Shown piece by piece: positions 27,001 to 30,000 of a stretch of 64,000 nt of DNA. Position 1 is the stretch's first letter. Every line of letters begins with the position of its first letter. Position numbers: made by a program. The stretch lies in the NCBI RefSeq assembly GCF_057098645.1, contig NZ_CM169472.1; one strand, 5' to 3'.

Positions 27001-30000
27001 CCCGGCTTCCCGGGCTTTACGATACTCCCGGTACAGAAAGGCCTCATCCACCGAATAACCGAGATTCGGGTTAACCATGGCGAGGTTTTCCATCAGCAGG
27101 TGCTCACCGCTCTCCACCATTTCAGGAGGATGCTCAAAAATCACCGGCAGAAAATGTGGATCATGAATTTTACCGTCGCGCACATCCCGGGCGTACTGCA
27201 GTTTCTGCCTGAACACCCCGGCAGGCGGCTCATTTGACTGGGTGGTTGTGTACACCACAAACCCTTCCGGACGTGAAGCCAGCCCGCCAATGGCTTCACG
27301 TAACATGTCCTCCGCCTTGTACTGCTTGCCAAACAGCCACAGTTCATCAATCAGCGTCCCCACGGACTTGATACCGGACACCGTATTCGGATCGGCTGCC
27401 ACCACCTTCAGGGTGGTGTCCGTCACCCTGTGGGTGATGGTCCGGATATGTGTCTGCACCTGACAGAGGTCATCCAGATCATCGTCCCGTCGTACCATAT
27501 CCCTGGCAGGGTTGAAGGCGTTGGCTGCCACCTCCACTGTCGGGGCCAGAATCGTGTAACCCGCCGCCTGCCGCCAGTTCAGTAACAGTGCAGTCATCAT
27601 GATCCCCGCGGCCAGCGTGGACTTCGAGTTTTTCTTGGGGATAAGGATAAACACTTCCTTGATATGGCGAACACCGGTCTGCGCATCGTAGGAGCCAAAC
27701 AGGGCCGCCACCAGGTCAAACACCCACGGTGCACAGGACTCCCCGAATGTCGGGCTACCCGGTGCATCCACAATCCGCAGTTGTTTAAAAATCGCCAGTG
27801 CATGTGCAGCCTGGTCCGGATAAATCGGAGCCGGAATAATCGACAGCCCCTTTTTCAGGCGCTCTGCCCAGTCCGGGCAGGCCGTGCTCCACACAGGTAT
27901 CATCCGTTGCCCTCATTATCATTATTCACCACCAGGCGGGGTGGTGGTGGCACCGCAAAACGGTTAGCCGCTTTTTTCGCCGCGTCACCTTTTGCCGATT
28001 TTTTACCGGCATCCCCTTTTTTGTGGTGCGTGAACTGCGCCAGCTTATAAGCCGCATCCAGCGCCAGCCTGGGGTCGGTATTAATGTTCTCCACCAGAAG
28101 ACGCCCCATCGCTTTCACCGGATCGGGAAGACCGTCCTCCATATACTCAATACCAGGAGATATCACCACGGGCGGTGGCATCTCCGGATTTGTTTCGTCC
28201 GGCTGTGGTATTGCAGCCGCCTCACGGCGACGGGGTTTATCCTCCTGCTCTGATTTTTTCTGCCGGTAAACAGGAACCTCATCCACCTCCACCGTCTCGC
28301 ATTGTTTACGGGCTATAAACGCAAGCACCTCCGGATCTTTTGCCAGCTGCGAGCCTTTAACCCTGGCGGTCTTCGCCGAATAACCAGCGGCAATGGCTGA
28401 CGCTGTTTTGTTTTTCCCGGACATGAGCGCCAGCGCAAATTTTCGTTTTTGCGTTGTCAGCACAGCCTCCTCCCGGGTCCAGAACGCACTCAGCCGGGTA
28501 TGGTTCAGCCCATTTTTCCCGGCGTCTCATGCCGCAAATGTTAACTGCTGCCTGGTTAACATTTGCTGAAAAAGCCAGTTAACATTTTTTCCGCACAACA
28601 AACTGAATAATAAAGATAAAAACCGCAAAAATGCCCGGACAGCCAGTTAACATGTTAACTGCCCTGAAACGGGAATTTTTTCTCTGCGTGAGAGGGGGCG
28701 CGGTGTCCGGAGCGATCGTTTTTTTCGCCGGATGATCCCCCGTTACTTTATTCGAACCCCTTATAATGGGGTGTTAGCCAGCCAGACCCGGCATGATTAC
28801 TGCCCCCAGTCGTCCATGATCCGGGGGGTGATGTCACCGGGTCTGGTGGGGCGCTGGTAACCGCTAATAGGGGTCAGGTCAGGCACTTTTGCCGGGACCG
28901 TCTGTAACGTGGATGCCGGTACCTGCTCCCCGTGGTTATCTGGTTAACCCATATACAAGGGAGACAGAATGACCGAATCCAGCGATTACGAATCCGTCCA
29001 GGTCTTTATCGGCGTTGATGTCGGTAAAGATACGCATCACGCTGTAGCCATTAATCGTTCAGGTAAACGCCTGTTCGATAAAGCATTACCCAACGACGAA
29101 AACAAACTCAGGTCGCTAATATCTGACCTGAAACAACATGGTCAGATACTGCTGGTTGTTGATCAGCCAGCTACCATCGGTGCGTTACCTGTCGCCGTTG
29201 CCCGCTCAGAAGGAGTCCTTGTCGGATACCTCCCTGGACTGGCCATGCGCCGCATAGCCGACTTACACGCCGGTGAAGCTAAAACTGATGCTCGTGACGC
29301 TGCCATCATTGCCGAAGCTGCCCGTACCCTGCCTCACGCGCTACGCACGCTGAAACTGGCTGACGAGCAAATCGCCGAACTCTCCATGCTCTGCGGCTTC
29401 GATGATGATCTTGCCGCACAGACAACGCAGGCCAGCAACCGTATCCGCGGCCTTCTGACCCAGATACATCCGGCACTGGAGCGCGTTCTCGGTCCGAGAC
29501 TTGATCACCCGGCGGTACTCGATCTTCTCCAGCGATATCCCTCACCAGAAAAACTCGCTTCGCTGGGTGAGAAGAAGCTGGCAGCCCAGCTCTGCAAACT
29601 TGCGCCTCGTCTGGGTAAACGCCTTGCAGCAGACATAGCTCAGGCACTGGCCGAACAAACCGTCGTCGTTCCCGGCACGAATGCCGCTGCCGTAGTACTG
29701 CCACGTCTGGCACTCCAGCTCATCACGCTGCGTAAGCAAAGAGACGAGGTGGCGCTTGAGGTAGAACAGCGAGTTCTTGCTCACCCTCTTTACCCGGTCC
29801 TGACCAGTATGCCCGGAGTCGGTGTCAGGACCGCAGCCAGACTCCTCACCGAGGTCGCCTGCCGCGCCTTCGCCTCTGCCGCACATCTCGCTGCTTATGC
29901 TGGCCTTGCGCCGGTAACTCGGCGATCCGGCTCGTCAATACGCGGTGAGCATCCCTCGCGACGGGGTAATAAAGCTCTCAAACGGGCGTTGTTCCTGTCG

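Follow-up and report, generated by a model that had tools for sequence, protein, structure and literature searches.

Five GTTAAC-centred repeats beside the cos cut of a BP-4795-type Stx prophage as a probable cosB-type recognition region for the small terminase

In phage lambda, the cosB region is made up of the elements R3-I1-R2-R1, which are bound by the small terminase gpNu1 and bent by integration host factor (IHF). Several copies of a short motif lie there in both orientations, in two clusters split by a bendable A/T-rich segment, and are read by the helix-turn-helix (HTH) domain at the N-terminus of the small terminase. Among cos/HNH systems, a DNA complex has been solved only for phage HK97, whose small terminase recognises a single 15-bp site by a tunnel mechanism, and a 2022 review called the way in which HTH-type small terminases read DNA elusive. 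Here, we describe an array of five GTTAAC-centred repeats upstream of the small terminase gene terS in a 64,000-nucleotide stretch of Escherichia coli DNA (contig NZ_CM169472.1, RefSeq assembly GCF_057098645.1; hereafter the window), which is a lambdoid prophage of the BP-4795/2851 Shiga toxin (Stx) phage type. The five repeats and a presumably bent A/T-rich spacer between them are quite probably the cosB-type recognition region of the phage's cos for its small terminase TerS, as judged from sequence comparison. This is most likely a known kind of element that had not previously been described for this common phage group, with natural specificity variants.

The original prediction of five GTTAAC palindromes within about 125 bp holds, since all five were located at 28540-28659 (starting at 28540, 28555, 28578, 28646 and 28654), that is, within 120 bp. 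The total of 19 GTTAAC in the 64-kb window, with 14 in the other 63.9 kb, is unremarkable against shuffled windows (12.8 ± 3.5), but the clustering is extreme: in 200,000 runs of random placement of 19 sites, none had five inside 125 bp. With 5 of the 19 sites gathered in 120 bp, the motif is not equally dense elsewhere in the window, and the prediction withstands the refuting condition that had been set for it. Beyond the hexamer, the repeat unit is an asymmetric 8-10-mer, (C)AGTTAACAT, which is present in both orientations. The 8-mer GTTAACAT/ATGTTAAC occurs six times in the window, five of them within the array, and the 10-mer CAGTTAACAT is exact four times, twice per strand, the fifth copy being TGGTTAACAT. 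The wider context CCAGTTAACAT had been predicted for three copies and was found exact in two (28575 and 28643), the third plus-strand copy reading CCTGGTTAACAT. The parts of the array are as follows, with distances counted from the left end of the phage genome.

28538-28547, minus strand: repeat A, CAGTTAACAT on the minus strand, 146-155 bp from the left genome end
28553-28562, plus strand: repeat B, the 10-mer variant TGGTTAACAT, 131-140 bp from the left end
28576-28585, plus strand: repeat C, CAGTTAACAT, 108-117 bp from the left end
28586-28643: A/T-rich spacer with phased T-tracts at terS-strand offsets of about 14, 23 and 31 and a conserved ATTCA
28644-28653, plus strand: repeat D, CAGTTAACAT
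28652-28661, minus strand: repeat E, CAGTTAACAT on the minus strand

Repeats A and B form an inverted pair with centres 15 bp apart, and D and E overlap to give the perfect 18-bp palindrome CAGTTAACATGTTAACTG (28644-28661), which lies 32-49 bp from the left end. Repeat C is preceded by a conserved A6 tract on the terS strand, and the A/T-rich spacer would act as a bend between the two clusters.

The position of the cut was obtained by comparison with Lys8385Vzw, a near-identical induced Stx1 phage for which PhageTerm reported the type cos with cohesive 3' ends and CGCCCCCCCT as the cos sequence (PMC7946995). The GenBank record of Lys8385Vzw ends in ...GGACACCGCCCCCCCT and starts with CTCACGCAGAG...GGCAGTTAACATGTTAAC... 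(first bases CTCACGCAGAGAAAAAATTCCCGTTTCAGGGCAGTTAACATGTTAAC), and its first 230 bases after the cut are the window sequence, all five repeats included. By this comparison the cos cut lies between 28692 and 28693 of the window; the left end of the genome begins at 28692 and runs towards terS, with the repeats at 32-155 bp and the terS start codon at 230. The same base is marked in the IMG/VR contig L084, a distant relative, where an Illumina adapter at positions 1-32, CACTCTTTCCCTACACGACGCTCTTCCGATCT, is joined to CTCATTCG... exactly at the Lys8385Vzw end; the adapter is contamination, yet it marks a physical cos terminus. When the right genome end was sought via adapter junctions in IMG/VR, no match was found. 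The features at the cut are given below.

28693-28702, minus strand: inferred 10-nt 3' cohesive end, CGCGCCCCCT on the terS strand, from the Lys8385Vzw cos and the L084 adapter junction
28662-28737, minus strand: cos core, with an A6 tract, the 23-mer GGACACCGCGCCCCCTCTCACGC (28686-28708) and CGATCG, common to relatives, satellites and GC-rich phages

The GC-rich phages L178, L179 and L202 and the Burkholderia phage vB_PR2a (L303/L304), whose TerS proteins are unrelated or share only 36% identity, also have the cleavage core, either as GGACACCGC.CCCC.TCTCACGC or in a closely similar form. Since the core is kept in phages with such different TerS, it probably belongs to the part of the machine formed by the large terminase TerL and the HNH endonuclease. 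The record of vB_PR2a is linearised at another base, which is probably an arbitrary point, and its terS start also lies inside an inverted TGTTAA...TTAACA. By these coordinates, the array stands where a cosB classically lies, upstream of terS and internal to the left end.

All close relatives with TerS identity of at least 90% (80 IMG/VR loci and 94 phage records) keep the five sites; these sequences are at least 95% identical, so that variation is too low for footprinting, and only the second base of repeat C is free (CTG in BP-4795). More diverged loci were collected by tracing the DNA from distant TerS homologues and by scanning for the conserved cleavage core. In an alignment of four diverged long arrays (the window, L164, L295 and the satellite L174), each array holds 5-6 GTTAAC while the spacers drift, and 30 of 38 motif columns are invariant as against 40 of 84 other columns (Fisher p = 9e-4, with one alignment slip that penalises the motifs). 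Unbiased k-mer counts gave ATGTTAA/GTTAACA as the top 7-mers, which occur 5-6 times in the array and 0-1 times across the other 1.5-7 kb of a locus. The array region (28520-28680) was found in 1242 of 5426 complete E. coli genomes (~23%), at 2940 places and up to seven per genome, and the elements that carry it include many Stx1 and Stx2 phages. At the 12 RefSeq places that were sampled, no annotated feature lay under the array match in any.

The diverged loci fall into three architectures according to how far the terS start lies from the core. Class (a), with a short leader of 31-32 bp, includes Salmonella phage FSL SP-016 and phages reached through TerS homologues that carry the names Enterobacter, Klebsiella, Serratia and Pantoea, and was represented by L084-L163 and many of L174-L293. 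Class (b), with 66 bp, consists of satellites carrying two tandem AAAGTTACAC, and class (c), with 221-223 bp, is the class of the window, with 5-6 copies and the T-tract spacer. In class (a), an imperfect palindrome, [G/A]TAAACATGTTAAC, lies over the terS start codon, and a further GTAAACAT is found about 20 bp beyond the cut; the D/E palindrome of the window is homologous to this start-codon palindrome. Among 73 distinct short-leader terS genes, codon 2 is TTA in 73/73, although TTA makes up only 6/501 of the other Leu codons, and codon 3 is ACA in 72/73. Because so rare a codon is invariant at this place, the hexamer must be under a constraint that goes further than coding, and TerS bound at the start palindrome could repress its own translation.

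This relationship between the two classes also bears on another explanation, namely that the copies have no function and are left over from terS 5' ends that were duplicated or recombined and then displaced upstream by an insertion of ~190 bp. Compared with class (a), class (c) contains an inserted segment of ~188 bp, which BLAST places in the Stx-phage group; ATGTTAAC encodes Met-Leu-Thr, the terS start in relatives; the short-leader terS starts exactly at the palindrome ATGTTAACAG; and TTTGCG recurs at nucleotides 25-30 in D, in B and in the real start on the terS strand, matching M-L-T-x5-F-A. Relics would, however, decay like the spacers, whereas the motifs are conserved and change in concert across copies. 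Short open reading frames from the copies (MLTT-stop, MLTA-stop and 24-aa peptides) are not conserved, two copies stand in the opposite orientation, and a satellite (L174/L175) keeps the array without terS. Relics are consequently considered very unlikely as an account of the array. Duplication of the terS start is the likely evolutionary origin of the copies according to these sequence matches, and a present function is not excluded by such an origin.

To identify the reader of the repeats, the TerS protein was compared with known small terminases. Its sole Pfam match is Terminase_2 (PF03592) at residues 2-57, the Nu1 family not being found by Pfam, and phmmer returned weak matches to 4zc3, 2cmp and 3zqp. 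In the AlphaFold (AF2) model, residues 1-55 have a predicted local distance difference test score (pLDDT) > 90 and form helices at 4-14, 19-25, 33-41 and 44-55. Foldseek placed this N-terminal domain on the SF6 small-terminase DNA-binding domain 4zc3 with a template modelling (TM) score of 0.84 and a root-mean-square deviation of 1.6 Å. The N-terminal 55 residues are predicted from this model to be an HTH domain of the SF6/G1P type, helix 33-41 was assigned as the recognition helix by alignment to SF6, and the domain is proposed to be the reader of the repeats. The sequence of this helix and the repeat motif vary together among the loci.

TARVKGSQL / TARVKGSRL: motif GTTAAC; the window, L164 and L295-L298
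SARCKGSQL: motif ATGTTTAY / RTAAACAT in five of five positions; L165 and L166, with which the three sites visible at the end of the truncated contig L294 agree
SARSKGSQL: motif GTAAAC; short-leader class
TARSQGSRL: motif GTCAAC and GTT[G/A]ACGTG, 16/16; short-leader class

In L165, the same half-site base is altered in 5/5 copies (ATGTTAAC to ATGTTTAY) at a spacer identity of only ~65-70%; independent neutral change would produce this shift with a probability of < 1e-4 by rough estimate. The covariation of the motif with the TerS helix points to the small terminase as the binder. The original prediction had named terminase or host-factor binding sites, and it is the terminase half that is supported, by comparative covariation.

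Under the host-factor half, the cos DNA would be bent by a nucleoid protein of the host, such as IHF or Fis, with the repeats as its sites. A/T-rich DNA with phased T-tracts does separate the two clusters, and these tracts are conserved in most long arrays; the spacer also contains one IHF-consensus match with one mismatch, ATTCAGTTTGTTG, and lambda cosB uses IHF. Shuffled sequences gave an equally good match in 36% of cases, and the match lacks conservation, being absent in L295 and L165; these results do not support an IHF site. GTTAAC is, to our knowledge, not an IHF or Fis consensus, and a host factor leaves unexplained why the motif varies with the TerS type inside one and the same host species, which makes this explanation extremely improbable.

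The relationship between TerS and the repeats was also seen in E. coli satellite-like islands that encode their own TerS, namely L167 and L168 (P0053) and L169-L171, L182 and L248 (P0061). L167 has only AlpA and TerS, while L169-171 have a D5-type primase, TerS and a capsid-like gene, and both carry the phage cleavage core. The TerS proteins of L167 and L169-171 are 58-68% identical to that of the window in the C-terminal part and 47-55% identical in the N-terminal DNA-binding domain. Their repeats are AAAGTTACAC (GTTACAC), not GTTAAC; L167 has five or more of them, among them the palindrome AAAAGTTACACGATGTAACTTTT, and in L169 they are tandem direct repeats. In the examined stretch of L167, genes for TerL and HNH are both missing, so that its cleavage must depend on the enzymes of a helper phage. 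L167/L168, L169-L171, L182 and L248 are candidate hijackers of BP-4795-type helper phages. In the IMG/VR contigs L174/L175, which encode a D5-type primase, a single-stranded DNA-binding protein (SSB), lambda-type E and D head proteins and a Nu1-like protein, the core and a five-copy GTTAAC array with diverged spacers are present without a Terminase_2 terS. Two satellite strategies are known, an own TerS with its own site or a copy of the helper's site, and both would here treat the array as a cis-acting identity signal. Together with the occurrence of the core in GC-rich phages of unrelated TerS (L178, L202) and in a Burkholderia phage, this fits a division of labour in which the core would serve the nuclease and the repeats TerS. 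No experimental work on these particular satellites was found in the literature.

The satellites also bear on whether another phage protein reads the repeats, for which TerL, the HNH nuclease and a protein of the DUF3950 (YlcI/YnfO) family come into question. The genes of all three lie beside cos, and the N-terminus of the DUF3950 protein, judging by its sequence, may adopt a DNA-binding fold of the ribbon-helix-helix type. The satellites, however, change the motif and keep the cleavage core, and L167, which lacks TerL and HNH in the stretch examined, must use the cleavage enzymes of a helper. No DUF3950 gene was called in L164 or in L165/L166, although both have arrays, and among the neighbouring DNA-binding domains the TerS HTH alone varies with the motif. 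A reader other than TerS is accordingly very unlikely.

Another possibility is that the inverted copies form hairpins in the late mRNA and so adjust the translation or stability of terS. Repeats A/B and D/E can form stems of 7-8 bp, both arms change compensatorily in L165, and in the short-leader class the start codon lies within the palindrome. The fold of the leader RNA is nevertheless no more stable than shuffles (z = -1.4), and copy C has no dedicated partner, yet it co-varies. Satellites with tandem direct repeats (L169) and the array in a satellite without a downstream terS (L174/L175) do not agree with hairpins either, and the Shine-Dalgarno sequence is ~70 nt from the nearest copy. Hairpins are judged highly improbable as the purpose of the array. 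A promoter or terminator was rejected as well, as no terminator was found and the only promoter-like sequence is a weak antisense match to sigma-70 (TTAACA-18-TAACAT, 9/12, 28556-28585, plus strand), formed from copies B and C and directed away from terS, which is probably incidental.

For recognition by TerS, the following sequence of events is proposed. The N-terminal HTH domains of a ring-forming Terminase_2 TerS would read the half-site ATGTTAAC, with one HTH pair on the D/E palindrome 32-49 bp inside the left end and others on C, B and A at 108-155 bp. The spacer with its phased T-tracts would let both repeat clusters wrap onto one TerS oligomer. Bound TerS would then position TerL and the HNH nuclease on the cleavage core, where a 10-nt 3' overhang would be produced, and packaging would start towards terS. 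What is conjectural in this scheme is that TerS physically binds the repeats, how the DNA wraps and what the bend does.

Several points weigh against a cosB-type role. Repeats that wrap around a TerS ring are not guaranteed, because HK97 uses one 15-bp site and a tunnel, and inverted pairs could also act at the RNA level. The motif and the TerS N-terminus are physically linked, and some of the covariation could be co-inheritance; the covariation argument is kept despite this linkage because all copies change in concert. The helix of the satellite TerS, TARVKGWQL, is close to that of the phage, yet the motif differs, and specificity must therefore depend on other residues too. A published description of the array or of the core sequence was not found in the searchable literature.

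A more tentative extension, which we hold to be possible at somewhat less than even chance, is that the TerS recognition helix and the repeats together make up a simple, evolvable code for packaging specificity. Replacing one or two residues of helix 33-41 would re-specify the GTNNAC centre, and all cosB copies would follow; one cosN would be shared, while pairs of cosB and TerS domain would be private to phages and satellites. Packaging identity would then be contested at the 125-bp array, in an arms race that sets Stx-type phages against E. coli satellites, the latter copying or replacing the array.

In the present prophage, the array is intact, but the neighbouring cos region is interrupted by an insertion sequence (IS).

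~28738/28742 to 30190/30196, plus strand: ISEc20 (IS110 family), delimited against phages that lack the interruption (BP-4795, L001) and against an annotated copy (LC567828, L002)

The target of ISEc20 is the run GATCCCCC/CCCCGGGGCGGG (the slash marks the insertion point), a conserved G/C run of the cos region that is now present as C5 at 28737-28741 and C6G4 at 30191-30200. The repeats had been thought to flank the IS110-family insertion; they do not, as all five lie on the terS side of ISEc20, are phage DNA and are separated from the element by at least 78 bp. A sixth GTTAAC, at 28943, is internal to ISEc20. The element lies in a homopolymer C/G run in 6/6 independent copies examined (the window, L002 and L299-L302; CCCCC/GTTAC...GGGGCA/CCCCC), and because six independent copies are all in C-runs, the homopolymer and not the repeats is taken as its target; the repeats as flanks or target of the IS were rejected. 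The split cos G-run lies 35-45 bp from the cut on the right-end side, a cosQ-like position, and ISEc20 may disable cos. In the PPompW prophages (LC567828, L002), ISEc20 has the same position by terS, and the other flank consists of tRNA genes and Q, not of the HNH and lysis genes, which suggests an IS-mediated deletion or recombination in that lineage.

The packaging genes around the array, assigned with Pfam, and a neighbouring insertion are listed below.

22665-24029, minus strand: portal gene
24241-26178, minus strand: protease-capsid fusion gene
26242-27903, minus strand: terL, large terminase with ATPase and nuclease domains
27900-28463, minus strand: terS, 187 aa, GTG start, Terminase_2 family
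30205-30570, minus strand: HNH endonuclease gene, upstream boundary of the cos interval
32959-33849 and 33846-34172: open reading frames of an IS3-family element within the split lysozyme gene

The gene order is HNH-cos-terS-terL, and a near-identical phage has the 10-nt 3' overhang. The array had been assigned to the HNH-TerS interval of a cos-type, HK97-like packaging module. The interval and the cos type are borne out by the HNH, Terminase_2 TerS, TerL, portal and protease-capsid fusion matches and by the 10-nt 3' cohesive ends of the near-identical induced phage, and the head is of the HK97 fold; the likeness does not extend to TerS, which is no homologue of HK97 gp1, or to the HK97 cos, which is unrelated in sequence. 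The small DUF3950 gene is located at 30612-30839 on the plus strand, divergent from the HNH gene. The phage lysozyme (endolysin) gene is present in two parts, 32663-32914 and 34198-34509, with the IS3-family element between them and the break at Pfam profile position 61/62. Because this insertion splits the lysozyme gene, the prophage is probably lysis-defective, and because ISEc20 splits the cos G-run in addition, it is probably defective as a whole and the array no longer in use in it.

The manner in which ring-shaped small terminases of the HTH type read DNA is unsettled, and the HK97 complex represents a quite different solution. With its clean 8-bp half-site, its geometry fixed with respect to a mapped cut and no fewer than four natural pairs of protein and site specificity, the array allows binding, wrapping and specificity-swap experiments to be designed directly. 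If the code reading is true, packaging identity is contested between Stx-type phages and satellites at the array. As a practical marker, the array could help to recognise cos sites, to tell packageable from broken prophages and to detect satellites that exploit Stx phages.

In comparison with known satellites (SaPI TerS, cos-carrying SaPIs, that is, Staphylococcus aureus pathogenicity islands, P4 and Rpp of the E. coli phage-inducible chromosomal islands, PICIs), the likeness lies in the helper's cos being carried (L174/L175) or in an own TerS with a private site (L167, L169-171). Unlike in the SaPI, P4 and PICI swaps, the cleavage core is shared in the cases found here, and the exchange is confined to the repeat and the N-terminal domain of TerS.

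HK97 has the same HNH-cos-terS-terL order, a 10-nt 3' overhang, HK97-fold head genes and, like the present phage, an A-tract just inside the left end. However, there is no sequence similarity in cos or TerS, which belong to unrelated sequences and, for TerS, to a different Pfam family, and HK97 was rejected as a homologue for this reason. Its site is a single one of 15 bp (+15 to +29), read as the DNA leaves the TerS tunnel, whereas here five half-sites extend over 125 bp. SPP1 and SF6, with the G1P boxes in pacL and pacR, share the TerS family and the fold of the DNA-binding domain with the present phage. They package by headful, whereas here defined 3' cohesive ends (in the near-identical phage) and an HNH gene beside terS are found, and all five copies of the window are on one side of the cut.

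Lambda cosB is the closest functional match. Like the array, it lies on the terS side of the cut, ~30-160 bp from the end and upstream of the small-terminase gene. Copies of a short motif in either orientation, grouped into two clusters on both sides of an A/T-rich and presumably bendable segment, and a small-terminase HTH as their proposed reader are further points of likeness. The differences are that TerS here belongs to Terminase_2 and not to the Nu1 family, that 10-nt 3' overhangs with an HNH partner take the place of the 12-nt 5' overhangs of lambda, and that the motif is an 8-10-mer which includes a perfect 18-bp palindrome, with no convincing IHF site. The region would work like cosB while being no homologue of the lambda system, and, as far as sequence comparison indicates, it joins a DNA-binding domain of the pac-phage type with a cos/HNH cleavage system.

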